From NCBI GenBank assembly GCA_046563655.1, contig CM102286.1, positions 8,928,001 to 8,992,000 on the forward strand: DNA of 64,000 nucleotides, in the 5' to 3' direction. The notes below the pieces were generated by a model. That model was not told the DNA's origin and made no database searches. It saw nothing but the letters and a program-made list of their open reading frames with translations. Source of the stretch: Yuukianura sp. NJ FZ-2021. Lineage: Eukaryota. A program made the translations under genes and the position numbers. The first letter of the stretch is position 1, and each line of letters begins with the position of its first letter. This document shows positions 1,867 to 64,000 of the stretch, in pieces.

Positions 1867-2526
1867 TACTCAAAAGGTAAACAAAAGAAAACCAAGTATC
1901 AGAATTTTGGTTTAACCAATTGATCTGAACGATCGTCACCTCAGGAAGTCCCGTTCCGGTTGGGACAGACCACTACGTATTCGATTGTGGCAGTATCGGC
2001 TCCACACCCGGACGATACTCCAACTGGCTCCTGTAGTGTCCAAAAGTGTCTAACGAACGACGTCTGGAACTCTCCTTGTCAGGTAACTGCTCCACCACTC
2101 CAATCAACTTGAGGCCAAGGGTCACCAAAATGTTAGAAAGTCGACCAGAAAACTAACCGTTAACTGCTCTTTCTGAGTTCCTACAAATGACTGGCCGGAG
2201 CAACTGACTAACTGACCAATGACTGGACAGGACGACTCAAAACTACCAACTCGTAGTTAATTGACTAAACCTTTTTAATTGATCAAAACGATTAATCCAA
2301 ATCTTACAGATTCTCCTCTTATACTTGTATCTTAACTTGTTACGACTTGTTAACACTAAACTTAACACCTCGAGGTGAGAAACCTTGAGCGCAGGCGTAA
2401 AGCCTATTTTAAATTTAGAAAACCAGAAAGAGAAAACGCGCTCAAAATTCTCACTTCCTAAAAACTAAACATTTCTAAAAACTAATCTTGAAAACACAAA
2501 AAATGAAAACACTCACTTATCCAACA
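1..2526 (-). mobile_element. BEL/Pao LTR retrotransposon, 5' portion (5' LTR, PBS, leader, gag-protease)
   Basis: On the minus strand the LTR ends ...TTTCTAACA at 2131, followed after 3 nt by PBS TGGTGACCCTTGGCC (2113-2127). The outer LTR boundary is a guess (TGTT candidates at 2471, 2526, 2591) because the second LTR is outside the window. Confidence 0.85.
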
Positions 2527-39300: not shown

Positions 39301-42300
39301 CTTCAAACTTTTTTTTACGCCTAAAACTCCTAACCCAAACTTTATTACACAACTCGCTTCGTCTCTCACCCACGAAACTTTGTTTCATTATAAAACCATA
39401 CAATTTCAGACTAAAAATTCAAAAAATTTAATATAATTTTGTGCTTGACTCTAGGGGAAAAATTTCAAGTTTTTTCCAACTATTATCAAACAAAAATTTA
39501 TTTTTCCACTTTCTCCTTGGGGTCATAAACTGTGAAATTCTTGAATTCGTTTTTTTTTTTGCCAATCGTAATAGACAGATTTCTTTTTTTTAATTCTCAC
39601 ACTGACGAGCTACATATCCACTTTTAAAATTTTAAATTATGTATAACTTAGCTTGATATTTAAAAAAATTATTTTCACAATGTGATACTTTATACTTTCT
39701 CAATTACGACAGAAAATGCCGCCTTTTTTTGTGGATTCAGAAACAAAACCAGTATGATAAATTAGACATTGTTCGGTAGAGATAAATTTTTAGCGGCTTT
39801 TTACCGCAAAGTCAGTCTGCAAGCATAAAAAAATTTATATTCTCTAAAATACTAAACGGTTTTTTTCTAGCGCTACTCTAATACAACATGAAATTGTACA
39901 ATTTTAACAAAGAAATTTGTGTTGAACCTATAAAAAATTGGTTTCTGTATACAGAAATAACTGGTGCACTGAGCTAGTTTTGTATTGTTTGTTACTATCG
40001 ATTAAGTTTGTTTCCAAACCTTAAATTAATTATTGGGAGGTCCCAACCAATCCAAAACTATAACCCAAATTGCTTGGAAAGTTTTTATCAGCACAAAAAG
40101 GTAACCTTCAGCAAAGGAGGTGCCTCTTAAATTTGCAAAATAGCAAACGTTGCAAACAACAAACAACATCCAGACAAAATTGGAAAAAACAGAAAAAGCT
40201 GGGACAAAGGATTAATTGAATTGGGGTTTACTGAATAGCAAAACATTTGACATTTCTTTTGTTGTTGGGAAATTAATAACACTGCCAGCAGTAGTACTCC
40301 AGTTGACGAGAGATTAAAATATTTTTGTTTCTGTTGAATTTATTAAAAGCTGAAGACATTGTCCCTTGTTTCCCTTAAAGTCCATTAATCAATTCTTTTA
40401 ACGCTTCACTGTGACACTGACTTACGACTGAAAGAGGCAGGGTTAGAGCTCTAAGGCCCCTTCCCCTTGAGTAAACACTGGACACGAACTGTGCAACAAA
40501 GCTTACAAGAGACACTTTATCATGGCATCCTAAATAATAATGTTTACCGCTTCACGGCACTTCATAAAAATGAACCATCAAAACCCCCACCAAAAATATT
40601 AAGGACAGTCGAATGTAGGGTTCTGCTATGCGTGACCCGATTCTGAGAACTCTTCAACACAATTACACTTAACATTATTTTTGCACAATTAAACTCGAGC
40701 TTACCATAAGCTTAGGAACACTGTTGTAAACAAGTAGACAAAGACATGTTCGTCAAAGACAATGTGGAACGCTCTGCGTGGGCAAATTTTCATGATTGCA
40801 TGTGTGATAAGTGCTAATGTTAGAAATTAAGGTTAATTTTAATTATTGATTTTAAGTTAAAAACCAGCGCCAGATTTGTTTTGTTATTTTTGAGAAAGAG
40901 GCGCTCGATTTGAAATGGCGTTTTTTCCTGGCGTGTCTTTGAATTGGAATTTTGTGTGTTATGATTTTTAGTAGGATTGTGGATATTAAGAAAAGAAAAA
41001 GGAATTTGGTCAATTGGTTAAATTTTCAGAATAAGTAAAATGAATGTTTCAAAATCAATTCTCGTGACTGCTTCGGTCCAACGAACGAAAATCACTTCTT
41101 CTCGGGGAGAGATTAAGGATTTAACAAATTGGTGACCCTGGCCGGACCAGAAGCGGGTATTCACGGAATCGATCGAAACTGACGGACACTTGGAAATCAC
41201 AGGCTCATCGATTACATTGAAGACTCGACCAACTGTTTACGTCGAGGTCTGTCCTCACCGGACGAGGACTGAAATCGGTGAGAATCGTTCCATTTGTCGA
41301 TTGCTGACTGATTAGTAACAGGTGGTATTTATTTACCTTAAGGATGACCAAGGAAATGGACAAACTGAAGAAACTCAGAGGGGCCGAACGGGGTATTGTG
41401 ACGAGGATGATCGGGACTTTGGAGAATGACTTGAAGGTTAACCCACTTCCAAAACTGAAAATCGAATCAAACCTCCGTGTTTTGAACGTTCACGTTGAAA
41501 AACTGGAAGAACTGGACGAATCGTACAAGTCAGCACTCCTGGATTTGGATTCAACTACAGATGAGGTTTTTGAAACTGAAACAGAATCAATCCTGGAGTA
41601 CACTACGAAGGTAGCGATGATCAGAGTGCAGGTTGAAGCAGTACTGGAGGTACCAACTGTGCCCGTTGCTCCTGGCGTTACCCAAGGTTCGAGCCGAAGT
41701 GGAAGCAGTGGCAGTTTGGGTGAAATGAACAATGTGAAGTTACCGAAGGCTGAATTAAAGAAGTATTCAGGCGAACTTTCAGAGTGGCTTGACTGGTGGT
41801 CATCGTTTGAGAAAATTGACCGTGACACAAGGCTCAACGATGCAGACAAGTTCCACTACCTTGACCAGTGTATGACGAAAGGATCGAAAGCGGCTAAACT
41901 GATTTTGCGGTATCCACACACGGCAGAAAATTACAAGAAGGCGGTGGATGCACTGAAGAAACGGTTTGGTGATCCTGATCTACTGTCGCTGATGTATGTG
42001 CAGGACTTGATCTCCATGGTGACTAACAAGAATAAGGACAGATTTGATCTTGCTTCTCACTTTGATACGGTGGAGACAAAAATTCAACATCTGGAATCAC
42101 TGGGACTTACGGTACGGGAGATGACTGTGTTTCTTTACCCCATGGTAGTAGCCAGTCTCCCAGAAGAAACAGTGATCGCCTGGCAACGTAGTACCAACTA
42201 TGGAAAAGATTGTAGTGAAGAAGACCCACCACAGACAAGGCTCGACTTTTTGCGGATGTTTCTACAAGAGGAAGTGGAACATGCTGAAAGTCGGGTGGTA

Positions 42301-45300
42301 CTTTGTACCAAGAAAACAGACACTGGAAGACGACAGACCCGGGGAAGGGAGCAGAGTCAAGAAGATGACATCCCTACAGCAGCCGGTCTTTTTAGTGGTT
42401 CTAATTCTTGTGTCTTTTGTGATAAAGGTCACGCCAGTCAAGACTGTTTCAAGGCACAGAAGATGACTGACGTGGAACGGAAGGACAAGTTGAAAGAAAA
42501 GGGAGCGTGTTGGGCCTGTCTTCGTACCGGTCACTTGCGGGCAAAGTGTACGATCAGCGTCAGATGCTCTAAATGTGGGAAACGTCACTACAAACTGATG
42601 TGTAATGGAGACGAGAAGAAGAAGCCAGTACCAAAGACTGAGTCGACCTCCACTACACAAACCAATCTGAACTGCACGAACGAAGTTCTACTTAAGACTT
42701 TGATGGTGAAACTGGTGAATCCAGTAAATCAGAAAACGAAGAAGGTGAGAGTATTTATTGATGATGGTTCCCAACGTTCCTATATCCTGTCAGGTACTGC
42801 AAAGGAGTTGGAGTTTGAACCAGTCTCGTCTCTCACCATGAACCATCAAGTATTCGGAGGTGGAACTATTCGTGATGTGAAACACGATACGTTTACCGTA
42901 ACACTCAAGAACATGGACGGTTCATTCTCTACTCAGTTCAACGTCATCGACCAAGATCAAATTTGCGGAATTTTGCCTAGAGCAACACAGGGGTCTTGGA
43001 AGGCGGAGTTGAAGAAGAGAGGAATTTCTGTCAATGATGTGGATTCGTCACACCCTGCCAAAGTTGAAGTGCTCCTCGGAGCGGATGTGGTGGGAAGTCT
43101 ACTTACTGGGAACATAGTGAACGTGAAGAGTGGACTTACCGCAATTGAGACTCAGTTTGGTTGGTGTTTAATGGGGCAATCTCATAATGATTTTTCTTTT
43201 TGTAATCAGGCGACTGTGATGACTGTTTTGTCAATGGGAGTTTCCAGTGCATCAGTGACTGAACTTTGGAACTTGGATACATTGGGAATTCGTGATCCAA
43301 TTGAAATTCAGACGAAAGAAGAACGTGATAAGTTGACATACGACCACTTCATAGAAACTGTACAACGTGATGACAGCGGCCGTTACTCAATTTGTCTCCC
43401 GTGGATTGACAGGGAACTGAAGATTCCGACAAACAGGCTGGTGGCAGAGAAGAGACTAGAGACTACCACCAGGAAATTGAAGTCGCTTGGGAAGCTGGAC
43501 GATTATGGTGCGATCTTCAAAATGTGGGAGAAAGACGGAATCATCTCTCAAATTCGTGATGTTGAAGACGGGGGGAAGGGGAAGATTCATTACTTGCCTC
43601 ATCGTGCGGTGTTAAAATTGGAAAGTAGCACCACACCCATACGACCCGTCTTCGATGCTTCCTGTAAGGTTGGAAGGGCCCCGTCACTGAACGAGTGTTT
43701 GGAAAAAGGGCCCAACTTGTTAGAAGTCATTCCGGCGATCCTTCTGCGATTCCGGATGAAGAACGTTGGTGTTATCTCCGACATCCGTAAAGCCTTCCTT
43801 CAAATTCAAGTTCAGGAGCAAGATCGAGATTCTCTTCGTTTCCTATGGTGGGAAGATCCAGGACAGGAGAAATTGACTGTTTTTCGTCACAATCGTGTCG
43901 TATTTGGAGTGAACAGTTCTCCATTTTTGTTAAGTGCAGTGATTAATTTTCATTTGTCTCAACAGGAGTCACAGCATTTGGACATTGTGAGAGAATTACA
44001 GAAGTCACTCTATGTCGACAATTGTGTTGTGTCTTTGGACTCAGTGGAGTGTTACAAAAAGTTCAAAGCAGAAGCCACAAAGCTTTTGGCAACAGCAAAA
44101 ATGGACTTGACCCAATGGGAATCTACGGGTGATGATGGAGTGACAAGTGTTCTTGGCCTAAAGTGGGACAAGAGAGCAGACACTTTGTTTTGTGCTCCGT
44201 TGAAAGACGAATGTTTATTGCAAGTTACTAAAAGAATTGTTCTTTCTAGAATTCAACAGGTCTTTGATCCACTGGGATTCTTGGCACCTGTCATGATTTT
44301 GCCGAAGCTCCTACTACAAAGGTCATGGATTGAAAATCGAAAGTGGGAGGACGAGGTGAATGAAGAGGCAAAAACAGAATTTTGCGCATGGTGGGAAGAA
44401 TTGTTGCCAGTTCTCGAAACATTCAGACTCCCGAGGAAGTGCACTGGATCAGCCGACGACGAAGGAGAATTTCAACTCCATGTCTTTTCTGACGCAAGTC
44501 AACACGCTTACGCGGCTGTCGTGTATCTTCGGGTGGAAACGACCAACGGGGTGGAAGTTCGTCTAATTCAAGCGAAGTCGCGAGTTGTTCCATTGAAGAA
44601 GACGACTATTCCTCGTTTGGAACTACTCTCATGCGCCATTGCTGCTCGTCTTGCCAATTCTGTGAAGGGGGCGTTGGACATGGAGAAGATTCCCATCCGC
44701 TACTGGACAGACTCGACTACAGCGCTACAATGGATTAGGCGTAGTGACGAGTGGGGGACATTTGTGGGAAATCGCGTAAGAGAAATTGTAAGCCTAACTG
44801 AAGTTTCGACTTGGCATCACGTTCCAGGCCTACTGAACCCGGCAGATCTACCATCCAGAGGAGTCACTCCGAAGAAGTTCAAGGAGATGAAATTCTGGTG
44901 GGAAGGGCCGTCGTGGCTGAAATTGAAAGAAAGTGAATGGCCAAGTGCAGAACCACATGCTGATGAAGATGAAGTTGGACGGGAGAAGAGAAGATCGACC
45001 GTTACACTGGCAGTCAACTCTTCAGTACCAGTGTGGTATACTCCTAAAAATTCCTATTTCGGAAATTTACGTGTTTTCGCCTATGCTCTCAGGTTCGTCG
45101 ACAAGTTGTGGAAAAGAAGTTCTGAAAATAGTCGAGTACCGTCAGCCTGGGAGACTCAGAGGTCCGAGCAAGAAATATGGAAACTTGTTCAATCAGAATC
45201 GTTCTCAAGTGATGTCAGACTGATTGACGGAATCAAAGTTGAGCGGGATGAACTGGGGTTAGTACGAGTACGGACGAAGATTTTAAATCGACAAGACACA

Positions 45301-47590
45301 GAAGATTTTCGTTGCCCGATCCTCGTGCCGAGCTCTCATCCACTCACAGAACAATTGATTATGGACTGGCACAAGATCAACTGTCATGCTGGAGTGCAGT
45401 TCGTTTTGTGTTCTCTTCGCGAAAAGTTCTGGATTTTGAAAGGACGACAAACTGTGAAGAAAGTGCTAAAGAAGTGTGTTAAGTGTCAACGTTTCACTTC
45501 CAAGAACTTTGATGTACCGTCTGCACCTCTACCAGAAAATCGAGTCAAGGACACATGCGCATTTAGTGTTACAGGAGTGGATTTGGCCGGTCCGTTACTT
45601 CTGAAGGCCAAGAGTAAGGTCTGGATCGTCATCTTCACATGCGCTGTGTATCGTGCAGTTCACTTGGAACTGGTGGACAGTTTGTCGACAAATGATTTTG
45701 TTCTTGCCTTCATCCGTTTTTGCAAAAGGAAGACCCGGCCTAGTACAGTCTACAGTGACAACGGTACTAATTTTCATGGTGCCGTTAATCTCTTCAAGCA
45801 AATTGACTGGGCGGAGGTGGAGCAAAGGACAAAGGAACAGCAAATTCAGTGGATCTTCAATCCACCGGCAGCACCTTGGTGGGGTGGATGGTGGGAGCGA
45901 CTTATTCGGTCGCTCAAGGACCTACTCAAGAGGATGCTCGGGTTCCGGAAGTTGAACAAAGTTGAGCTCGAGACCTGCTTGTGTGAAGTAGAGGACACCA
46001 TCAACCACAGGCCGCTGACTTTCGTAACGGAAGATGTACAAGATTTGATCCCCCTAACACCAGCCATGTTTATTCACAATCTTCCGGTAAGTGAGGTTCC
46101 AGAATCTCAAATTGTAACCGGTTCTGATTTCAACAGGAAGAGCAAGAGGCTGGACAAAATGTTGGAGGAGTTACGACAACGTTTTCGTAAGGAGTACTTG
46201 GGACTTCTTGTGCAACGAGGAAAACAGAAAACCAGAGAATTTGTCGTTGGTGACTGCGTCCTGATTGGCAGAGAGGACGTTAAGCGGATCCTTTGGCCAA
46301 TGGGGATAATTGAAGAATTGATCAGTGGAAAAGATGGGGTTCATCGGGTGGCCAAATTGCGGACGAAGAATGGGATTTTGGTTCGCCCACTACAGAGACT
46401 TTTTCCGTTGGAATTTGACCGAGACTACCCGACTGGTGAACTTTCCCTTGACTTGGAACTGGAAATGGCTGCTCAAGACTCGGATGAAGAGGAAGACGTC
46501 GAAACAGAAGATCCGGAGCAACCAGTGATAACGACTACTCGAAGTGGACGCACTGTTCGTAAGCCCGTAAGGTACTGCGACTACTGATAGTTTTAAGCTT
46601 TTTTGAGTTCGTCCTAAATACTAGTTTTAAGTTTTCAGTTCGTCCTAAATACTAGTTTTAAGTTTTCAGTTCATCCTAAATACTAGTTTTAAGTTTTCAG
46701 TTCATCCTAAATACTAGTTTTAAGATTTTCTGATCGACCTAAATTTAATTTTAAGTTTAAAGTTAACGTTTGGGTTTGTTGTTTTCTTTGACTTCCCAGC
46801 CAAAGAAGGTGGGAATGTGTTAGAAATTAAGGTTAATTTTAATTATTGATTTTAAGTTAAAAACCAGCGCCAGATTTGTTTTGTTATTTTTGAGAAAGAG
46901 GCGCTCGATTTGAAATGGCGTTTTTTCCTGGCGTGTCTTTGAATTGGAATTTTGTGTGTTATGATTTTTAGTAGGATTGTGGATATTAAGAAAAGAAAAA
47001 GGAATTTGGTCAATTGGTTAAATTTTCAGAATAAGTAAAATGAATGTTTCAAAATCAATTCTCGTGACTGCTTCGGTCCAACGAACGAAAATCACTTCTT
47101 CTCGGGGAGAGATTAAGGATTTAACAGCTAATGAATAAGTTATTCAATCCCAATTTGGAGTACCGCGTTGCTCATATTATAGTTGACCTTTTGGCCTGCC
47201 GAGCCTTCTGAGAATATTACTGGTTAGTCCATTTCTAAAAGTATGTTTTTTACTTCCCAGAGTCCGGATTCGCCAAACTGCTACTTGGCAGTACTTAGCA
47301 TCCAGAATCTGTCTTCGGAAGACGGAGGAGAGTACATGTTTGTAGCCCGAAATAGCAAAGGGATTCATGAGGGTACGATACTGCTAAATATCACGCAAGC
47401 CAGTTACTCCGTGTCCAGTATTTCGACGGCCACTTCGACGTCGTCCAGAGCTTACAGTGGTCGCTTCTCCTCCTACTCCCGCATCATTACGGCCCATTGC
47501 CTCACGCTCATCCTCCTGTTCATCATCAGTCCACTGGCCATGGGATGTCCAGCACAGCAGCATCCCCAGGCATCAGCATCGCCGTTATGA
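12315..47590 (+). CDS. Five-Ig-domain cell-surface protein (Kirre/NEPH-like ectodomain, short hydrophobic C-terminus), 10 exons
   Basis: GT-AG exons: 12315-12375 (signal peptide MRTKRRTMVFAGLHWMILIL, continued by CHIVLCS), 18819-19325 (LKLKC..ITW..DNGIWQC), 20056-20458 (IQCVVEGGNPPPKITW..VVC), 25261-25383, 28962-29052, 29371-29429, 30433-30516, 30813-31007, 32581-32765, 47261-47590. All phases are consistent except exon 3, which has one extra base at CCCC 20301-20304. Confidence 0.88.
40818..41126 (+). repeat. 5' LTR
   Basis: Direct repeat of 46818-47126 at an offset of exactly 6000 bp. No mismatch seen. Confidence 0.97.
41130..41143 (+). promoter_or_regulatory. Primer-binding site, probably tRNA-Trp
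   Basis: TGGTGACCC lies 3 nt after the LTR and matches the start of the known tRNA-Trp PBS (TGGTGACCCCG...). The same motif occurs in the first BEL element. Confidence 0.75.
41344..46587 (+). CDS. BEL/Pao Gag-Pol polyprotein (gag, zinc knuckles, aspartic protease, RT, RNase H, integrase), 1747 aa
   Basis: Three CX2CX3-4HX4C knuckles, protease FIDDGSQRSY, RT motifs HYLPH / RPVFDAS / SDIRKAFLQI / YVDN, RNase H HVFSDAS...TIPRLELL, integrase GVDLAGP / YSDNGTNF / PWWGGWWERLIR. Confidence 0.98.
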   Translation: MTKEMDKLKKLRGAERGIVTRMIGTLENDLKVNPLPKLKIESNLRVLNVHVEKLEELDESYKSALLDLDSTTDEVFETETESILEYTTKVAMIRVQVEAVLEVPTVPVAPGVTQGSSRSGSSGSLGEMNNVKLPKAELKKYSGELSEWLDWWSSFEKIDRDTRLNDADKFHYLDQCMTKGSKAAKLILRYPHTAENYKKAVDALKKRFGDPDLLSLMYVQDLISMVTNKNKDRFDLASHFDTVETKIQHLESLGLTVREMTVFLYPMVVASLPEETVIAWQRSTNYGKDCSEEDPPQTRLDFLRMFLQEEVEHAESRVVLCTKKTDTGRRQTRGREQSQEDDIPTAAGLFSGSNSCVFCDKGHASQDCFKAQKMTDVERKDKLKEKGACWACLRTGHLRAKCTISVRCSKCGKRHYKLMCNGDEKKKPVPKTESTSTTQTNLNCTNEVLLKTLMVKLVNPVNQKTKKVRVFIDDGSQRSYILSGTAKELEFEPVSSLTMNHQVFGGGTIRDVKHDTFTVTLKNMDGSFSTQFNVIDQDQICGILPRATQGSWKAELKKRGISVNDVDSSHPAKVEVLLGADVVGSLLTGNIVNVKSGLTAIETQFGWCLMGQSHNDFSFCNQATVMTVLSMGVSSASVTELWNLDTLGIRDPIEIQTKEERDKLTYDHFIETVQRDDSGRYSICLPWIDRELKIPTNRLVAEKRLETTTRKLKSLGKLDDYGAIFKMWEKDGIISQIRDVEDGGKGKIHYLPHRAVLKLESSTTPIRPVFDASCKVGRAPSLNECLEKGPNLLEVIPAILLRFRMKNVGVISDIRKAFLQIQVQEQDRDSLRFLWWEDPGQEKLTVFRHNRVVFGVNSSPFLLSAVINFHLSQQESQHLDIVRELQKSLYVDNCVVSLDSVECYKKFKAEATKLLATAKMDLTQWESTGDDGVTSVLGLKWDKRADTLFCAPLKDECLLQVTKRIVLSRIQQVFDPLGFLAPVMILPKLLLQRSWIENRKWEDEVNEEAKTEFCAWWEELLPVLETFRLPRKCTGSADDEGEFQLHVFSDASQHAYAAVVYLRVETTNGVEVRLIQAKSRVVPLKKTTIPRLELLSCAIAARLANSVKGALDMEKIPIRYWTDSTTALQWIRRSDEWGTFVGNRVREIVSLTEVSTWHHVPGLLNPADLPSRGVTPKKFKEMKFWWEGPSWLKLKESEWPSAEPHADEDEVGREKRRSTVTLAVNSSVPVWYTPKNSYFGNLRVFAYALRFVDKLWKRSSENSRVPSAWETQRSEQEIWKLVQSESFSSDVRLIDGIKVERDELGLVRVRTKILNRQDTEDFRCPILVPSSHPLTEQLIMDWHKINCHAGVQFVLCSLREKFWILKGRQTVKKVLKKCVKCQRFTSKNFDVPSAPLPENRVKDTCAFSVTGVDLAGPLLLKAKSKVWIVIFTCAVYRAVHLELVDSLSTNDFVLAFIRFCKRKTRPSTVYSDNGTNFHGAVNLFKQIDWAEVEQRTKEQQIQWIFNPPAAPWWGGWWERLIRSLKDLLKRMLGFRKLNKVELETCLCEVEDTINHRPLTFVTEDVQDLIPLTPAMFIHNLPVSEVPESQIVTGSDFNRKSKRLDKMLEELRQRFRKEYLGLLVQRGKQKTREFVVGDCVLIGREDVKRILWPMGIIEELISGKDGVHRVAKLRTKNGILVRPLQRLFPLEFDRDYPTGELSLDLELEMAAQDSDEEEDVETEDPEQPVITTTRSGRTVRKPVRYCDY
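46590..46755 (+). repeat. 31-bp tandem repeat in the retrotransposon 3' UTR
   Basis: About 4-5 copies of TTTCAGTTC(G/A)TCCTAAATACTAGTTTTAAGT immediately after the stop codon. Confidence 0.9.
46818..47126 (+). repeat. 3' LTR
   Basis: Direct repeat of 40818-41126, preceded by the PPT and followed by the TSD. Confidence 0.97.
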
Positions 47591-52554: not shown

Positions 52555-54825
52555 AACGTATGGATTTCTGTCCAAAATGAAATTGAGCGACTTCCTTTTC
52601 CACACACTGGAACCACACTCTAATGCAGGGCTGAACCTATTTCTTCGAAATCCAAAAGTATAATACTCAAGGAACGGAAAATAAAGAGCGAGTCGTTTCC
52701 CTCATTTTGAAATTGAATATTGAATAAGTGTGTACAAAGCGTCGCAGCAGTTTTCATTTTTTTTTTTTGTAAAAACTTTTTTTTAGTGGATTTCGTTTGT
52801 GTTGCATTTGGAGGATGAAGTGCCGAAGAAAGAGATTGAAACAAGTTATGTGTTTTCTTGGTCTTTTGTTTTATATCGAAAGTTGACTATTTTCATAGGG
52901 AAGGGAGGAGGTCCTATGGTGATGTGGATGAAGTCCTCCTTTGCGACAGATCAGACAGATCTGCAAGAATAGGGAAAAGAAAGTGAGTTTGAGGAGATGA
53001 GATTGGAGACTTAACTTTTTGTTTCCCGGGTTTTCCTTGCGTCAATTCAACTAAACTGTGGCAAAGTAGCGCCCGGAAAGTGTGCGTCGTTCCATTTGGG
53101 ATCTCCTAAAGAACACGGAAAAGCGAAGAATAGGATAAGCGTCGTTCCGTCGTAAAATTTTACTGTGGAATTGAATATGGAAGAAAAGTGGAGACTACAA
53201 AATCCTCCGAGGCATCGGGATTCGTTAGGCCCATCTCAGTACTCGTCGTAGCTTTCGTCGAAATCAAATCCAAAAGCTTTCTAGTAAACCAAGAGGATTC
53301 GACTTCGCAAAACCTTTCATGCAAAATTTCTTTTTCCAAATTGCAAAAAGAGAAGAAAGTGAAGCCAAGTTTTTGAACAAAATGTTAGGTTTATAAGGTT
53401 CTTCTGACCCGGCTGATCAAGACATAACAGTAAATTTCTCTTGGAAATTGGGGTTTCGACTCCATAGCTATTCAGGACTCAAACTTCAAATTTATTGAAG
53501 AAACTTTAAGATTAACAATAACTTTTTGTTGTGCTCATGCTAATATAACCAAAGGTTAGAAATTTTGAGTTAACAAACTTTTTTCAAAATTGCATTACTA
53601 GTATAGTTATATCTAAAAAGGCATCGGCGAACAACACAAAATTTTCAAATTCGACGCTGCCCTTTCATTGTTTGCACTAACTCATACACAAACATTTTTA
53701 ATTTTATCTCGTAAAATGTCATGCTGTGTTAAATTCAATTGAACAAGTGTGAAAATTTTTCGAACAAGGCTGTAGTCTTACGCATAACAAAAACTCGTTA
53801 ACGTATAATGAAATTTCAATATGCAGAATATAATATACCTAACATAATATGCATAAGATGTGTGTATGCATGTATTTTTAAATTGGAATATATATTTTAA
53901 ACTAGGCACAAAACAAACCCGTTTACTCTTTTGGTAAAACAACACCAAACTTTAAGGTTAAGCAGATCCTTGAGAGCTCCGGGCCGTATAAACCCTACAA
54001 ATAAAATCACTGAAAATCTAATGAATTATTTCAACAAAATAATAATTTGAACAATAAATTATAAAATACAGTATAAAAACTGGTTATGTCATTTGTAAAA
54101 TTAACGATTTCGACTATCTGTTTGATTCAAGATAAAAACTACCATGCAAAAGCTTATAAATATCAATACAATATAATTAATTAAAAGATAGCTAATTGAA
54201 CGTCCGTGAAAGTCCTTATTAACACTACGTCAAGACTTGTTGGAAATAAGATTGATTTCAAAGTTCAAACTAAACAATTTCTCAAGAAACAAGATTCAAA
54301 ATCCAATTCACTTCCTTTGACTTTTGCCTTATTCCGAGAACCAGAGGAGCTGGACAGAAGCTCATTAATTTTCATCAAGACAAATGAAAGGGCTCCCGTT
54401 TGAGACTTGGTTCAAATTCCGAATTTCTCGGGGCTAATCGAGATGCCACTCTGCTTCCAATCCATTTGTTCATTCCACTTCCAACCTAAGTTAAGTTAAG
54501 TTGCCCCTAAGGAGTTGACCCAATGTCAAGCTAGGGGTTTCTTAGCACATCCCCAGACACAAATTCAACGCTAGGGAATATTGAATGCAAAGGGAAGACT
54601 TCCCGTTGTGATCAATTTTCTTAAAACTTGACACTGACAACAAGCAAATTCCACAAAATTCATTATAGTCATAAGAACGAGTAGATGGAAAATTTAAAAA
54701 ATTGAAACAGATAAGACAAGAACATAAAAGTGTTCAACCTCAACCAAAAATTAAACACTAACTCATGTTAAGATACAATGGTAACAATTGTGTGGTAACA
54801 TTTTGGCACAATGTTTAAAAATACA

Positions 54826-55153
54826 AGTAGTTATCATCGCATGACTACTAGTAAAAACAAACTTGACCTGTAGGTCAAAATATGTAAACATGACCTACTT
54901 TTCGAAAGTCAACTTTTCAGGGTGCATGAGAAAATGATCTCATTCTTTCTCTCAGTGGAAAAGAGTATACGAGGAAGAGTTCACTTCCACCCACTCTTCA
55001 CTTGTGAGGAAACTTTTGAGGGGAGGGTAGGGTGTAATTTTTTAACACATAAGAGCAACAAAAAACGAAACTGAGTTCAGTTATTCATAAACCATGAACC
55101 ATTACACTTGTTGGGAGGAGAAAAATGTCTGGTTTCAGTTCTAGTAAATTTTA
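54826..55153 (+). repeat. Left terminal inverted repeat (~328 bp)
   Basis: Reverse complement of 63429-63763 apart from a few substitutions and small indels. Confidence 0.95.
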
Positions 55154-56007
55154 CTCTTGTGACACATGCCAATTGCAAAATTTAGGTGCACAACGATTCT
55201 TACCTCACGTCCAAACAACCCATCTGGACATTGAAATACCTGGTAAGCTTAAAACAATTGATACAGTAATACGCATTGTTTTTAAAATTCTTGTTACAAT
55301 AGGTGAATTGTTAGAAGACATTCAAACTGAGCATTATGATACCTCGGGAGCATTCGCTGGAAGACAGTGCGGATGCGAAACATGTAACTTGAGGGGGCTT
55401 TCTGAACGAGATTTTATAAGTCACATTCAACAACTGCATCCAAGTATTCAATTACCAGGTAATCTCAAATTAATAATTCGAAAGCAGAGCATGTTTTGAT
55501 TGTTGTTGGTTGTTTTTAGGTCTCATTGCTGGTACAAGTAGTTCACGGTCGGCATTTGTACCCCTTCAGTACCAGCCGACGGAAGGTTAGAATGTCATGA
55601 TGATGATTTTTTTTGTAAAAATAATCTTCTCTTCCAATTTAGAACGAGATGCTGTTGCGTTGGAATTACAAGGAATTGGAATTGAGGAATTACAAGAGAC
55701 GATTTTGTGCTCAGTGTGGAATAAATTTTGAGTATCCTGGGCAGTTGGATGAGCACCAGTACAATACTCACCCAGAACTGTATCCTTCTGTTCAAAACCA
55801 ACAGAGTGGAAGTGCTCCAGAGTATGAAGTACATTTCGATGAATTGACTGCTTTTGGCGGTACCACTCGCGAGTATACCGCAACGTTTGATGAAGATGTG
55901 TTTGTGGATGTGGCTGGTCGCTGGTGTCTTTGCTCACTGTTCAGCAACTTTGCGGGAATTGATGAGAAGGATTCATGGGGAAATCGCGTCGTACTTGGTC
56001 AGCAGTG
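55125..56007 (+). pseudogene. Spliced gene with three C2H2 zinc fingers, 3'-truncated by the tandem array
   Basis: Exons 55125-55242, 55303-55458, 55520-55585 and 55643 onward, separated by ~60-nt GT-AG introns. Three CX2CX12HX4H motifs (CDTC..H..H, CETC..H..H, CAQC..H..H). With the best donor, exon 4 is out of frame before finger 3. A 7-nt insertion is likely at 55913-55919. Confidence 0.7.
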
Positions 56008-59000
56008 TTTGTTTTGTGACGTCAAAATTGGTGGGTTTGGAGTCAAAGTAAATCAATATGTTCCAAAGAGAACTCCGATGTTTCTGTATGGTGGAACGCA
56101 AATTACGCCCAAGGAATGTAAACACTTAAATACAACAGGTAACATAAAACTTCTAAGTTTTGATGTATGAAATAAAACGAACAGAAATGTGGAATCACAA
56201 CGACTGGTCTAATTGCCTTTTCATTCAATCGAACTTTCACATTTGCGATTCTGCTACCGTCGTTGAAAAAAGTTTACTCCACAACTAATTTTGTATACAT
56301 TGAGTGGTTACTTCACCCAACGTGTTACGACTAATAGGCCGTATTTTTTAGTGAGGACACAATTTTGTGCTTAATAGAAGCATTAGTACCGTTGGCCCCT
56401 AACAAGTAAAGAAAATCTTAAAAATGCAATTTGGTGGGATTGCACTTTTGTCAAAACATATTTCTGTTTCGTGTTGTTATGATGTAATAAACTTTAGCAA
56501 GTAGGAATATGAGCGGGGAAATTTTACTTACATACACTTATAACCACTTATAACTTTGTTTCTCCGGAGTCACATTCTTGCTTACTAAGTTACATGATCA
56601 AAACACAAAACATCATTTTATTTTTGAGAAAAGTGATATTTGTATTACTTCAAAACGACCCCAGCAACTCAATTTAACAGTTCATGTTTTTTTTATTTAT
56701 TTCAGTATGACCCAAAAATAGGTTGTAACGTACTTCGAGGGCATAAGTATGATTCCGAAACAAAAGACCTCATTTCACAATTATCTGCTTCGGGATATCG
56801 CCCCATACCTGGAATAAAGCGAAGAAATGGAGTAATGGTAGAGATGGCGGACGACTTTTCCAGGCTGTGCTATTTGTTTTGTGACGTCAAAATTGGTGGG
56901 TTTGGAGTCAAAGTAAATCAATATGTTCCAAAGAGAACTCCGATGTTTCTGTATGGTGGAACGCAAATTACGCCCAAGGAATGTAAACACTTAAATACAA
57001 CAGGTAACATAAAACTTCTAAGTTTTGATGTATGAAATAAAACGAACAGAAATGTGGAATCACAACGACTGATCTAACTGCGTTTTCATTCTATCGAACT
57101 TTCTCATTAGCGATTCTGCTACCGTCGTTGAAAAAAGTTTACTCCACAACTAATTTTGTATACATTGAGTGGTTACTTCACCCAACGTGTTACGACTAAT
57201 AGGCCGTATTTTTTAGTGAGGACACAATTCTGTGCTTAATAGAAGCATTAGTGCCGTTGACCCCTAACAAGTAAAGAAAATCTTAAAAATGCAATTTGGT
57301 GGGATTGCACTTTTGTCAAAACATATTTCTGTTTCGTGTTGTTATGATGTAATAAACTTTAGCAAGTAGGAATATGAGCGGGGAAATTTTACTTACATAC
57401 ACTTATAACCACTTATAACTTTGTTTCTCCGGAGTCACATTCTTGCTTACTAAGTTACATGATCAAAACACAAAACATCATTTTATTTTTGAGAAAAGTG
57501 ATATTTGTATTACTTCAAAACGACCCCAGCAACTCAATTTAACAGTTCATGTTTTTTTTATTTATTTCAGTATGACCCAAAAATAGGTTGTAACGTACTT
57601 CGAGGGCATAAGTATGATTCCGAAACAAAAGGCCTCATTTCACAATTATCTGCTTCGGGATATCGCCCCATACCTGGAATAAAGCGAAGAAATGGAGTAA
57701 TGGTAGAGATGGCGGACGACTTTTCCAGGCTGTGCTATTTGTTTTGTGACGTCAAAATTGGTGGGTTTGGAGTCAAAGTAAATCAATATGTTCCAAAGAG
57801 AACTCCGATGTTTCTGTATGGTGGAACGCAAATTACGCCCAAGGAATGTAAACACTTAAATACAACAGGTAACATAAAACTTCTAAGTTTTGATGTATGA
57901 AATAAAACGAACAGAAATGTGGAATCACAACGACTGATCTAACTGCGTTTTCATTCTATCGAACTTTCTCATTAGCGATTCTGCTACCGTCGTTGAAAAA
58001 AGTTTACTCCACAACTAATTTTGTATACATTGAGTGGTTACTTCACCCAACGTGTTACGACTAATAGGCCGTATTTTTAGTGAGGACACAATTCTGTGCT
58101 TAATAGAAGCATTAGTGCCGTTGACCCCTAACAAGTAAAGAAAATCTTAAAAATGCAATTTGGTGGGATTGCACTTTTGTCAAAACATATTTCTGTTTCG
58201 TGTTGTTATGATGTAATAAACTTTAGCAAGTAGGAATATGAGCGGGGAAATTTTACTTACATACACTTATAACCACTTATAACTTTGTTTCTCCGGAGTC
58301 ACATTCTTGCTTACTAAGTTACATGATCAAAACACAAAACATCATTTTATTTTTGAGAAAAGTGATATTTGTATTACTTCAAAACGACCCCAGCAACTCA
58401 ATTTAACAGTTCATGTTTTTTTTATTTATTTCAGTATGACCCAAAAATAGGTTGTAACGTACTTCGAGGGCATAAGTATGATTCCGAAACAAAAGGCCTC
58501 ATTTCACAATTATCTGCTTCGGGATATCGCCCCATACCTGGAATAAAGCGAAGAAATGGAGTAATGGTAGAGATGGCGGACGACTTTTCCAGGCTGTGCT
58601 ATTTGTTTTGTGACGTCAAAATTGGTGGGTTTGGAGTCAAAGTAAATCAATATGTTCCAAAGAGAACTCCGATGTTTCTGTATGGTGGAACGCAAATTAC
58701 GCCCAAGGAATGTAAACACTTAAATACAACAGGTAACATAAAACTTCTAAGTTTTGATGTATGAAATAAAACGAACAGAAATGTGGAATCACAACGACTG
58801 ATCTAACTGCGTTTTCATTCTATCGAACTTTCTCATTAGCGATTCTGCTACCGTCGTTGAAAAAAGTTTACTCCACAACTAATTTTGTATACATTGAGTG
58901 GTTACTTCACCCAACGTGTTACGACTAATAGGCCGTATTTTTAGTGAGGACACAATTCTGTGCTTAATAGAAGCATTAGTGCCGTTGACCCCTAACAAGT

Positions 59001-62000
59001 AAAGAAAATCTTAAAAATGCAATTTGGTGGGATTGCACTTTTGTCAAAACATATTTCTGTTTCGTGTTGTTATGATGTAATAAACTTTAGCAAGTAGGAA
59101 TATGAGCGGGGAAATTTTACTTACATACACTTATAACCACTTATAACTTTGTTTCTCCGGAGTCACATTCTTGCTTACTAAGTTACATGATCAAAACACA
59201 AAACATCATTTTATTTTTGAGAAAAGTGATATTTGTATTACTTCAAAACGACCCCAGCAACTCAATTTAACAGTTCATGTTTTTTTTATTTATTTCAGTA
59301 TGACCCAAAAATAGGTTGTAACGTACTTCGAGGGCATAAGTATGATTCCGAAACAAAAGACCTCATTTCACAATTATCTGCTTCGGGATATCGCCCCATA
59401 CCTGGAATAAAGCGAAGAAATGGAGTAATGGTAGAGATGGCGGACGACTTTTCCAGGCTGTGCTATTTGTTTTGTGACGTCTAAATTGGTGGGTTTGGAG
59501 TCAAAGTAAATCAATATGTTCCAAAGAGAACTCCGATGTTTCTGTATGGTGGAACGCAAATTACGCCCAAGGAATGTAAACACTTAAATACAACAGGTAA
59601 CATAAAACTTCTAAGTTTTGATGTATGAAATAAAACGAACAGAAATGTGGAATCACAACGACTGATCTAACTGCGTTTTCATTCTATCGAACTTTCTCAT
59701 TAGCGATTCTGCTACCGTCGTTGAAAAAGTTTACTCCACAACTAATTTTGTATACATTGAGTGGTTACTTCACCCAACGTGTTACGACTAATAGGCCGTA
59801 TTTTTAGTGAGGACACAATTCTGTGCTTAATAGAAGCATTAGTGCCGTTGACCCCTAACAAGTAAAGAAAATCTTAAAAATGCAATTTGGTGGGATTGCA
59901 CTTTTGTCAAAACATATTTCTGTTTCGTGTTGTTATGATGTAATAAACTTTAGCAAGTAGGAATATGAGCGGGGAAATTTTACTTACATACACTTATAAC
60001 CACTTATAACTTTGTTTCTCCGGAGTCACATTCTTGCTTACTAAGTTACATGATCAAAACACAAAACATCATTTTATTTTTGAGAAAAGTGATATTTGTA
60101 TTACTTCAAAACGACCCCAGCAACTCAATTTAACAGTTCATGTTTTTTTTATTTATTTCAGTATGACCCAAAAATAGGTTGTAACGTACTTCGAGGGCAT
60201 AAGTATGATTCCGAAACAAAAGGCCTCATTTCACAATTATCTGCTTCGGGATATCGCCCCATACCTGGAATAAAGCGAAGAAATGGAGTAATGGTAGAGA
60301 TGGCGGACGACTTTTCCAGGCTGTGCTATTTGTTTTGTGACGTCAAAATTGGTGGGTTTGGAGTCAAAGTAAATCAATATGTTCCAAAGAGAACTCCGAT
60401 GTTTCTGTATGGTGGAACGCAAATTACGCCCAAGGAATGTAAACACTTAAATACAACAGGTAACATAAAACTTCTAAGTTTTGATGTATGAAATAAAACG
60501 AACAGAAATGTGGAATCACAACGACTGATCTAACTGCGTTTTCATTCTATCGAACTTTCTCATTAGCGATTCTGCTACCGTCGTTGAAAAAAGTTTACTC
60601 CACAACTAATTTTGTATACATTGAGTGGTTACTTCACCCAACGTGTTACGACTAATAGGCCGTATTTTTAGTGAGGACACAATTCTGTGCTTAATAGAAG
60701 CATTAGTGCCGTTGACCCCTAACAAGTAAAGAAAATCTTAAAAATGCAATTTGGTGGGATTGCACTTTTGTCAAAACATATTTCTGTTTCGTGTTGTTAT
60801 GATGTAATAAACTTTAGCAAGTAGGAATATGAGCGGGGAAATTTTACTTACATACACTTATAACCACTTATAACTTTGTTTCTCCGGAGTCACATTCTTG
60901 CTTACTAAGTTACATGATCAAAACACAAAACATCATTTTATTTTTGAGAAAAGTGATATTTGTATTACTTCAAAACGACCCCAGCAACTCAATTTAACAG
61001 TTCATGTTTTTTTTATTTATTTCAGTATGACCCAAAAATAGGTTGTAACGTACTTCGAGGGCATAAGTATGACTCCGAAACAAAAGACCTCATTTCACAA
61101 TTATCTGCTTCGGGATATCGCCCCATACCTGGAATAAAGCGAAGAAATGGAGTAATGGTAGAGATGGCGGACGACTTTTCCAGGCTGTGCTATTTGTTTT
61201 GTGACGTCAAAATTGGTGGGTTTGGAGTCAAAGTAAATCAATATGTTCCAAAGAGAACTCCGATGTTTCTGTATGGTGGAACGCAAATTACGCCCAAGGA
61301 ATGTAAACACTTAAATACAACAGGTAACATAAAACTTCTAAGTTTTGATGTATGAAATAAAACGAACAGAAATGTGGAATCACAACGACTGGTCTAATTG
61401 CCTTTTCATTCAATCGAACTTTCACATTTGCGATTCTGCTACCGTCGTTGAAAAAGTTTACTCCACAACTAATTTTGTATACATTGAGTGGTTACTTCAC
61501 CCAACGTGTTACGACTAATAGGCCGTATTTTTTAGTGAGGACACAATTTTGTGCTTAATAGAAGCATTAGTACCGTTGGCCCCTAACAAGTAAAGAAAAT
61601 CTTAAAAATGCAATTTGGTGGGATTGCACTTTTGTCAAAACATATTTCTGTTTCGTGTTGTTATGATGTAATAAACTTTAGCAAGTAGGAATATGAGCGG
61701 GGAAATTTTACTTACATACACTTATAACCACTTATAACTTTGTTTCTCCGGAGTCACATTCTTGCTTACTAAGTTACATGATCAAAACACAAAACATCAT
61801 TTTATTTTTGAGAAAAGTGATATTTGTATTACTTCAAAACGACCCCAGCAACTCAATTTAACAGTTCATGTTTTTTTTATTTATTTCAGTATGACCCAAA
61901 AATAGGTTGTAACGTACTTCGAGGGCATAAGTATGATTCCGAAACAAAAGACCTCATTTCACAATTATCTGCTTCGGGATATCGCCCCATACCTGGAATA

Positions 62001-62534
62001 AAGCGAAGAAATGGAGTAATGGTAGAGATGGCGGACGACTTTTCCAGGCTGTGCTATTTGTTTTGTGACGTCAAAATTGGTGGGTTTGGAGTCAAAGTAA
62101 ATCAATATGTTCCAAAGAGAACTCCGATGTTTCTGTATGGTGGAACGCAAATTACGCCCAAGGAAAGTAAACACTTAAATACAACAGGTAACATAAAACT
62201 TCTAAGTTTTGATGTATGAAATAAAACGAACAGAAATGTGGAATCACAACGACTGGTCTAACTGCGTTTTCATTCTATCGAACTTTCTCATTAGCGATTC
62301 TGCTACCGTCGTTGAAAAAAGTTTACTCCACAACTAATTTTGTATACATTGAGTGGTTACTTCACCCAACGTGTTACGACTAATAGGCCGTATTTTTTAG
62401 TGAGGACACAATTCTGTGCTTAATAGAAGCATTAGTGCCGTTGGCCCCTAACAAGTAAAGAAAATCTTAAAAATGCAATTTGGTGGGATTGCACTTTTGT
62501 CAAAACATATTTCTGTTTCGTGTTGTTATGATGT
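56008..62534 (+). repeat. Tandem array of ~864-bp units, ~7.5 copies
   Basis: Near-identical ORFs recur at 56640, 57505, 58369, 59233, 60096, 60960 and 61824 (spacing 863-865). The array starts mid-unit at 56008 and ends at 62534. Confidence 0.98.
56706..57035 (+). CDS. Putative terminal exon (109 aa, unknown function), repeated in every array unit
   Basis: Pyrimidine-rich acceptor TTTTTTTATTTATTTCAG, then YDPKIGCNVLRGHK...LLSFDV, TGA and an immediately adjacent AATAAA. Other copies at 57571-57900, 58435-58764, 59299 (premature stop at 59484), 60162-60491, 61026-61355, 61890-62219. Confidence 0.5.
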   Translation, partial: YDPKIGCNVLRGHKYDSETKDLISQLSASGYRPIPGIKRRNGVMVEMADDFSRLCYLFCDVKIGGFGVKVNQYVPKRTPMFLYGGTQITPKECKHLNTTGNIKLLSFDV

Positions 62535-62937
62535 TGGGGGTTAGGGATGTTTGGGGAGTTGGGAGATTTGGGGAAGGAGTAGAAGACGTGGAGTTTTATG
62601 ATTGGCTATGTTCTGTGCATGGTTCAACTTCCGACGACCTCAACGACATGTCGACCTAACTTTGAGGTCAGCTCTATTCCGTACGTTTTGCGTCGGCTGT
62701 CTACATTCTACTTGAGGACAACTGGAGGAGCTGCGGAACAGTTGGCTACACTCAAGACGACTCTGGAGACTTGCCGCAGCGACATTGAAACCTTCAACCA
62801 GGAGCTGGAACATGTCCCACATGACTAACTTTCCCTTTCTTTTCACTTGGTAAAATAAAATTTGTTAGCAATTGCTTTAAAACAAACGAGAGAATTTGGA
62901 TTTTGTGAGATCTTATTTGTTTTTTTTTTGTTTAAAT

Positions 62938-63280
62938 TTATTTGAATGGAGTACAACATTGATTAAGGTTAGATGAGGAAGGAAGAGAATTTTTGGAGAG
63001 TCTCCTAAGCTTTTTTCTTACAAATTGTCTAACTAGCCTATCATTTCTTTTGGAGTTGGAGTTGAAGTTGCAGTAGATGGACATGAGACAGCAAGTATGA
63101 TAAAGTTTGTAGAAAAAATAGATTGCATATTCTCCACACACTTGAGAGTTTGGACTTTGAAGAGTCCGGATGTTTTCCACAATTGAAGTCTGGTGCCGAG
63201 ATGCAAAGTTGGAAAAGGCCTTGTCGTAAAACTCTACTCCCAACCAACCCATACGAGTCGATGAATTTGAGAGGAGCCTT
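62938..63280 (-). pseudogene. Adenain-like (peptidase C5 type) cysteine protease remnant, typical of Polintons
   Basis: Removing a 4-nt duplication (CAAC x2, 63241-63248) restores KFIDSYGLGVEFY...ENIRTLQSPNSQVCGEYAIYFF, i.e. the FxDSYG, LQ and CG motifs. The upstream His motif is missing. The stop overlaps AATAAA. Confidence 0.8.
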
Positions 63281-63282
63281 GG

Positions 63283-63435
63283 AATTTTAGGTTAGGTTAG
63301 GTTAGCTAACCTAGGTTAGCTAACTTAAACTTAACCTAGCTAGCTTAACTAGCTTAACTAGCTTAGCTACCTAGCTAGCTAACTTAACCTAGGTTAGCTT
63401 AGGTCAGCTAACCTAACCTTACCTAACCTAAAATT
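63283..63435. repeat. Head-to-head (TTAGG)n...(CCTAA)n low-complexity palindrome
   Basis: Starts AATTTTAGGTTAGGTTAGGTTAGC and ends GCTAACCTAACCTTACCTAACCTAAAATT, with a TAGC/TAAC-rich middle. Confidence 0.85.
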
Positions 63436-63763
63436 TACTAGAACTTAAGCCAGACAATTTTCTCCTCCCAACAAGTGTAATGGTTCCAGGTTTATGAACA
63501 ACTGAACTCAGTTTCGTTTTTTGTTGCTCTTATGTGTTATAATAAAAATTACACCCTACCCTCCCCTCAAAAGTTTCCTCACAAGTGAAGAGTGGGTGGA
63601 AGTGAACTCTTCCTCGTATACTCTTCTCCACTGAGAGAAAGAATGAGATCATCATTTTCTCATGCACCCTGAAAAGTTGACTTTCGAAAAGTAGGTCATG
63701 TTTACATATCTTGACCTACAGGTCAAGTTTGTTTTTACTAGTAGTCATGCGATGATAACTACT
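63429..63763 (-). repeat. Right terminal inverted repeat (~335 bp)
   Basis: Reverse complement of 54826-55153. Confidence 0.95.
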
Positions 63764-64000
63764 TACAGTAAAACTTTTAGCTTCTGAAAATCGAAACTTC
63801 ACAAAATTTCAGAAGACACACGATACTTTGAAAACAAGATGAGTTAGAAGTGTTTGGTTGTAGAATCGGACTCTTCGAAAAAATCAGGTTGATTTCCTTT
63901 TTCTTTTTTTGTCGAATTAGTTGGAGGGATAAAAGTTGGATTTGGAATCTGGAACTTTGGAATTTTGAAAAGAAAGTCTGGAAGGAAAGAATAAGTTTAA

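Follow-up and report, generated by a model that had tools for sequence, protein, structure and literature searches.

A tandem array of exon-like units beside a C2H2 zinc-finger gene of Yuukianura sp., probably an amplified gene fragment within a transposon-like element

Pack-MULEs and other Pack-type elements of plants are bounded by terminal inverted repeats (TIRs), lack a transposase and enclose a piece of a host gene, introns included, which is sometimes fused in frame. In the alternative last-exon arrays of lola and mod(mdg4), every exon supplies a finger of its own and terminates the transcript. Tetris of Drosophila virilis is described as a foldback or long-TIR DNA transposon whose internal tandem repeats seed satellite arrays (PMC4079207). 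Here, we analysed 64,000 nt of DNA from Yuukianura sp. NJ FZ-2021 (assembly GCA_046563655.1, contig CM102286.1, positions 8,928,001–8,992,000 of the forward strand; hereafter the window, in whose numbering all positions are given), in which near-identical units of ~864 nt, each with an exon-like segment, stand in tandem at 56008–62534, beginning within the last exon of a C2H2 zinc-finger gene. A preliminary description of the sequence had proposed a bank of alternative last exons. We consider the array, on balance, probably a captured gene fragment that was amplified in tandem recently and, it appears, neutrally, rather than a functional series of alternative gene ends. The window was compared with contigs from runs X1 and X2 (one sample, the kind of X1 having been guessed as DNA), X5 (another study, organism label B) and X6 (a metatranscriptome).

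Structure of the array and its unit

By alignment, the array occupies 56008–62534 on the plus strand and comprises seven full units of 863–865 nt in head-to-tail order, followed by a part unit of 478 nt ending at 62534, in agreement with the ~864-bp tandem units first described. Repeat finding placed eight register-matched copies at 56008, 56873, 57738, 58602, 59466, 60329, 61193 and 62057 (spacing 863–865 nt); Tandem Repeats Finder, whose longest period was 500, was silent on this ~864-nt unit. The units are 98.5–99.9% alike, with 1–13 pairwise differences per 865 alignment columns among the full units, and fall into two variants, one formed by units 1 and 7 and the other by units 2–6, with unit 8 a mosaic of both. 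Units 1 and 7 differ at a single position and units 2–6 from one another at 1–4, compared with 10–13 of 865 between the groups; all but identical units in the centre and more divergent ones at the edges fit expansion by unequal exchange. The array is certainly more than chance, and an assembly artefact was rejected as the origin of the repeat because the tandem joint (56872 to 56008) stands in DNA contigs of X1, X2 and X5, that is, in all three DNA runs and in two studies. Contig depth over the unit shows no several-fold rise relative to the flanking gene; such depths are not copy numbers, and no inference was drawn from them. No second copy of the unit or of its peptide was found outside the locus in the window. 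In X5, a collapsed unit contig of 895 nt has 0–1 differences from unit 1, and contigs on the C2H2 exons differ by 5–12%; by this comparison, the unit appears much more conserved than the adjoining C2H2 gene copies, or shared more recently.

A T-rich acceptor, TTATTTATTTCAG, precedes all seven complete exon-like segments, with the first exon bases at 56706, 57571, 58435, 59299, 60162, 61026 and 61890. From each acceptor runs a 330-nt frame of 109 codons, open in six of the seven copies and broken by a TAA at 59485–59487 in the copy at 59299; there is no upstream in-frame ATG, and the start given by the open reading frame (ORF) track is a TTG. The frame ends in a TGA with AATAAA directly behind it in every unit (7/7), and an eighth instance stands at 56168–56176 after the C2H2 exon. 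These are the features on which the preliminary description had based a terminal-exon cassette, and the per-unit check bore out each of them. Absent from that description were the placement of the first unit inside a C2H2 exon, a flanking inverted repeat of 330 nt, and a consensus donor, ACAG/GTAACA (the slash marks the exon–intron boundary), which lies 30 nt ahead of the stop and is intact in all eight copies. This donor is similar to those of the C2H2 gene (CTG/GTAAGC, CAG/GTAATC and AAG/GTTAGA).

Since a consensus donor precedes each stop, a more fitting reading of the unit would be an internal 298-nt exon, with phase 0 at its acceptor and phase 1 at its donor, and a 567-nt intron behind it, and the stop with its AATAAA would most simply belong to the first 38 nt of that intron, reached by intron read-through. 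Read in this way, the seven complete exon copies, all on the plus strand, span 56706–57003 (298 nt, running from phase 0 to phase 1, with the read-through stop at 57033–57035 and AATAAA at 57036–57041), 57571–57868 (a D21G variant), 58435–58732, 59299–59596 (the broken copy), 60162–60459, 61026–61323 and 61890–62187 (a C-to-S variant), after which the array stops in the intron part at 62534. The exon length is 3n+1, so that two copies included together would shift the frame.

Exon and intron also differ in GC content (0.41 versus 0.33), with a GC content by codon position of 0.47/0.39/0.35 in the exon. Together with the exact bracketing of the open frame by acceptor and donor, and with the language-model Atlas results given below (recognition value and consistent SET neighbours), these differences speak against a chance origin in AT-rich DNA, by which the unit would be a satellite-like repeat without coding content and its open frame and splice-like signals accidental. 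We regard such an origin as unlikely, though several observations would accord with it: a stop-free run of at least 131 codons occurred in 62 of 3000 dinucleotide-shuffled versions of the unit, or 2% (one of at least 109 in 252), AATAAA is frequent in the rest of the window (~0.84 per kb), as are acceptor-like tracts (~0.63 per kb), and a homologue was not found in any search made. Because all copies derive from one sequence, the cassette features count as one observation.

Variation among the copies is sparse. The exon has four variable sites in 298 nt (one silent, two replacements and one nonsense) and the intron 11 in 567 nt, and the unit peptides differ by at most two residues. The unit exon shows no sign of constraint, the numbers of sites being too small for a test.

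Junctions of the array and reading frames through the C2H2 gene

The register of the unit starts mid-exon, and the array begins inside the final exon of the C2H2 gene, whose frame it continues. The 5′ part of this gene (55125–56007, plus strand) has its ATG at 55125 and encodes three single fingers, which are weak C2H2 matches under the Pfam cut-offs; in the predicted model, short introns span 55243–55302, 55459–55519 or 55541, and 55586–55642 on the plus strand, with exon 4 from 55643. The model is uncertain because the frame depends on which AG ends intron 2: an end at 55519, the first AG past the pyrimidine tract, puts exon 4 out of frame, and an open model requires an acceptor at 55538 or 55541. 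The first copy of the unit contributes the 3′ part of its exon (56008–56138, plus strand), with the donor between 56138 and 56139, TGA at 56168–56170 and AATAAA at 56171–56176, and the C-terminal 53 residues of the resulting ORF (55649–56170) are identical to those of the unit peptide. A paralogue contig from X2 matches 55871–56008 and beyond that is unrelated sequence; because it diverges exactly there, 56008 reads as a breakpoint, with no gradual loss of similarity. X5 (organism B) has no contig across 55920–55989, in the region of this junction. At the other end, the array stops mid-intron at 62534, where it abuts G-rich short repeats of TTGGGG/TTAGGG-like type (62535–62580, plus strand), a junction that forms loose ends in both X1 and X2. 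No matching downstream exon was found beyond the array within the window, in which unrelated sequence follows 62534.

The in-frame junction raises the possibility of a young chimeric gene, in which exon 4, read to 56170, would link three C2H2 fingers with the opening strands of a SET-like domain, the downstream copies being a by-product. The frame is kept across 56008 (ORF 55649–56170), a likeness to SET domains appears in the language-model search, and a contig of 266 nt from the X6 metatranscriptome, at depth 2, matches 55722–55987 without a difference. However, an in-frame junction is expected in one of three cases, and it is uncertain whether exon 4 shares the frame of exons 1–3. The RNA-library contig, being of depth 2 and within one exon, could be library DNA; because it lies wholly inside exon 4, upstream of the array, it cannot separate RNA from DNA carry-over. 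No homologue of exon 4 was found in word-index searches, whether in the 'near' mode or in the 'longer' mode with the 121-residue unique part, and a metagenome scan for exon 4 returned 119 pattern matches, none confirmed by tblastn. We know of no activity of half a SET domain. A chimera of this kind seems improbable to us. No second copy of the C2H2 gene was found outside the locus in the window.

The frames of the possible splice products bear on whether the units act as gene endings. When the exon-4 donor (phase 1) is joined to any of the acceptors, or a unit donor to the one that follows, the codons across the joint read GTA TGA (valine, then a stop); the 109 codons are in frame only from a phase-0 donor, and the exon-3 donor is in phase 0 only where intron 2 ends at 55538 or 55541. 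One possible gene model thus leaves exon 3 in phase 0 and reads the 109 codons, which is what a bank of alternative last exons would need, with C2H2 transcripts splicing into one of seven acceptors, reading through to the TGA and being polyadenylated at AATAAA; each unit does have the acceptor and the TGA with AATAAA, along with the 109-codon frame (open in six of seven). Against such a bank stand the intact donor before every stop, the V-stop product from exon 4, a nonsense change in one copy, three of four exon changes that alter the protein, and the near identity of copies that would give no isoform diversity. Spliced contigs were not seen, the lone RNA contig spanning 55722–55987 only. We consider a working bank quite improbable, and the suggestion of useful alternative last exons was not supported, given peptides that differ by at most two residues and an exon-4 donor that leads to V-stop. 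The related proposal, that an exon of an unrecognised gene had been amplified next to a spliced C2H2 gene, fared better: a tandem exon-like piece is present, probably in a transposon-like element, but its status as a terminal exon is not supported, given the donor intact in eight of eight copies.

For expression, the material amounts to the single 266-nt X6 contig, and with RNA data this minimal neither the joint 56138 to 56706 nor a 3′ end was seen in contigs. Contigs of X1, the run guessed to be DNA, pass unspliced across both splice sites. Thus far, and within these minimal RNA data, neither spliced nor polyadenylated reads have come to light, and the homology searches gave no homologue that keeps the frame; these are the two outcomes named in advance as speaking against the original proposal.

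The flanking inverted repeat

An inverted repeat of 329/336 nt, 95.5% identical, brackets the whole locus (54825–55153 against 63764–63429), its arms lying ~8.3 kb apart. The left arm (54826–55153, plus strand) contains both a putative promoter and the beginning (29 nt) of the C2H2 frame, and in the right arm (63429–63763, minus strand; 95.5% identical to the left) the C2H2 ATG is replaced by ATT. The outer ~90 nt of the left arm are part of a high-copy repeat. Many variant contigs of X2 and X5 fall on 54800–55700, and contig depth over 54800–54939 is far higher than elsewhere. The arm copies in these X2 and X5 contigs cease to match at 54825/54826, where they continue into at least three different outer flanks, and some become a palindrome after 54915–54917, as expected of short foldback relatives. 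The arms thus belong to a dispersed, multi-copy repeat family.

If the element is set as 54826–63763 (AGTAGTT...AACTACT), the tetranucleotide TACA stands on both flanks (54822–54825 and 63764–63767) as a candidate 4-bp target-site duplication. With moderate confidence, and from the arrangement of the sequence, we interpret the 8.9-kb block as the interior of a non-autonomous, long-TIR transposon-like element; the arms could possibly be two independent inverted copies of one repeat end. No match was found in Rfam at gathering scores over 54500–64000, and none of the remaining frames from the array to the right arm matched a family.

Several further features lie in or near the arms. Directly inside the right arm, a palindrome of 140 nt (63287–63426) sets TTAGG-type against CCTAA-type repeats, with arms 77% complementary, and looks like head-to-head telomere-like repeats. 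Three outer flanks of arm copies, including the right flank in the window (63765–63794), have TCGAT exactly 30 nt outside the arm end, and the left flank in the window is without it; its position suggests a further conserved block past a variable stretch of 25 nt. On the minus strand, 62938–63291 holds a frame of 117 codons containing QSPNSQVCGEY, which we take to resemble the active-site cysteine region of the adenovirus-type (C5) proteases of Polinton/Maverick elements; this likeness found no backing in Pfam or PDB, and the ORF as such a protease was set aside. It has no second copy outside the locus in the window.

Within the left arm, a 1253-nt X1 contig has 14 T>C differences over 54863–55043, all confined to the arm, and X2, from the same sample, has none. 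The cluster could reflect another haplotype or paralogue or, if X1 is RNA, A-to-I-like hyper-editing of a minus-strand transcript. The latter possibility, together with the 330-nt arms inverted 8.3 kb apart, would suit a source of double-stranded RNA (dsRNA) or small RNA. In that case, the two arms of a transcript spanning the entire block would pair as a hairpin, and the array would supply a silencing pathway of piRNA or siRNA type directed at the repeat family or the parent gene. However, the array is direct, not inverted, and would form no hairpin itself, and the T>C cluster, absent from X2, may simply belong to another haplotype or paralogue. We give this role little credence; it is compatible with the other readings of the locus.

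Origin of the array and comparison with known systems

In the language-model Atlas, the whole unit peptide has a recognition value of 2424, and its 30 nearest neighbours include 10 SET and five PRDM2_PR clusters, at 0.94. For residues 50–99 alone, 27 of 30 named neighbours are SET, with a score of 0.93 and 154–163 shared features, which is under the 170 typical of true members. The pattern ...KIGGFGVKV...YGG..I...E is presumably similar to the first strands of a SET domain. We judge the chances about even that the C-terminal part of the peptide is the start of a SET-type domain. The exon ends ~45 residues into this supposed domain, and neither the catalytic C-terminal motifs of SET (PF00856) nor a continuation was found within the window. 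An AlphaFold2 single-sequence model of the peptide was unusable (mean pLDDT 37, pTM 0.25).

These observations can be joined in one scheme, which we favour as probable. The source would have been a fragment of a protein-coding gene, comprising an internal exon of 298 nt, left at ACAG/GTAACA, and an intron of 567 nt, and this fragment, captured or stranded, would then have been multiplied in head-to-tail order, through unequal crossing-over or replication slippage, to ~7.5 near-identical copies. Both ends of the array would be arbitrary breakpoints. On the left, the break in mid-exon would happen to continue the reading frame of a C2H2 gene, one of a multi-copy family, from its last exon, and on the right, the break in mid-intron would abut G-rich short repeats. 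The 8.9-kb block between the 330-nt inverted repeats of the dispersed family would probably be filler of a non-autonomous transposon-like element, and the terminal-exon look of the units, with stop and AATAAA, would come from intron read-through. Were transcription from the C2H2 promoter to run into the array, two products would be predicted, namely a chimeric protein whose final 53 residues come from the fragment and, through the joint 56138 to 56706, a protein that terminates in V-stop and leaves the repeats in a long 3′ untranslated region. The array, its donors and breakpoints, the frame arithmetic and the multi-copy inverted arms are read directly from the DNA; from them we infer a gene origin (perhaps the start of a SET-type domain), a transposon frame and a lack of function.

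A number of points weigh against this scheme. The copy number of 7.5 comes from the assembly alone, the block contains no transposase, and the candidate TACA duplication is only 4 bp long, with a boundary ambiguous by 1 nt and end letters that can be read as repeat. The parent gene of the unit exon was not found within the window or by protein searches, and the frame could be a chance ORF, at ~2% of shuffles. The peptide family had gone unrecognised in the preliminary description, and this was upheld by searches of protein sequences, Pfam and PDB, none of which gave a credible homologue. With phmmer, 1.84 billion representatives yielded three matches to the 109-residue peptide (E 8.5e-6 to 3e-4), one to a bacterial Big_3 repeat protein and the others to two further repeat proteins, which were discarded as spurious, their scores being built from 4–8 repeated short stretches. 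In Pfam, the 109 residues matched no family at E up to 1, and pieces of 99 and 49 residues none at E up to 10; PDB sequences gave no match at E up to 10, and word-index searches, including the 'longer' mode, likewise none; of 166 pattern matches to the peptide in a metagenome scan, none was confirmed by tblastn. The SET likeness comes from the language-model search only, with no profile support. Finally, the in-frame C2H2 fusion and the six open frames of seven would also fit a young functional chimera.

The most far-reaching combination of these elements would have a mobile long-TIR element capture the first half of a SET-type methyltransferase domain, fuse it in frame to its own C2H2 fingers and amplify the exon–intron unit, with read-through transcripts pairing through the 330-nt arms as a hairpin that is hyper-edited or diced, so that the locus would be both a newborn chimeric gene and a dsRNA source against its own family. 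We consider this very improbable.

If an amplified gene fragment is the correct explanation, the locus offers a snapshot of two ordinary early processes, the growth of a gene fragment into a kilobase-scale array and the accidental in-frame fusion of a zinc-finger gene within a repeat element. It also serves as a warning for annotation, as the copying of one internal exon with its intron can yield seven identical cassettes of acceptor, ORF, stop and AATAAA. It would say little that is new on gene regulation unless RNA shows use of the cassettes.

The surrounding DNA is of animal character, with immunoglobulin-like and trypsin-like exon frames and introns of ~60 nt. A BEL/Pao-like gag-pol frame (41308–46587, plus strand) runs through 1759 codons without interruption and looks intact, and a second, related BEL/Pao-like copy (1–1869, minus strand), of which the window holds the start, runs off its left end.

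Compared with described systems, the locus shares with lola and mod(mdg4) a series of exons, each led by an acceptor, that lie downstream of a gene of zinc-finger type, but its copies are undiversified and retain a donor. As in Pack-MULEs, a TIR-bounded block without transposase holds a gene piece with an intron and an in-frame fusion; it differs in its animal host, its 7.5-fold tandem amplification and a parent gene that was not found. As in tandem exon duplications and clusters of mutually exclusive exons (PMC9013439), an exon has been duplicated in tandem with its flanking intron, whereas here no constitutive downstream exon is present, the copies are identical and the array starts mid-exon in another gene. 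Like Tetris, the putative element is non-autonomous and has long inverted repeats, an outermost part common to abundant short relatives, and head-to-tail repeats growing to kilobase size (PMC4079207). In Tetris, however, repeats of ~220 bp lie within the TIRs (PMC4079207), whereas the 864-nt units are central and carry an exon-like frame and an intron. The mobility of the present element is putative. On these comparisons, the closest known systems would appear to be Tetris-like long-TIR elements and gene-fragment capture of the Pack-MULE type.

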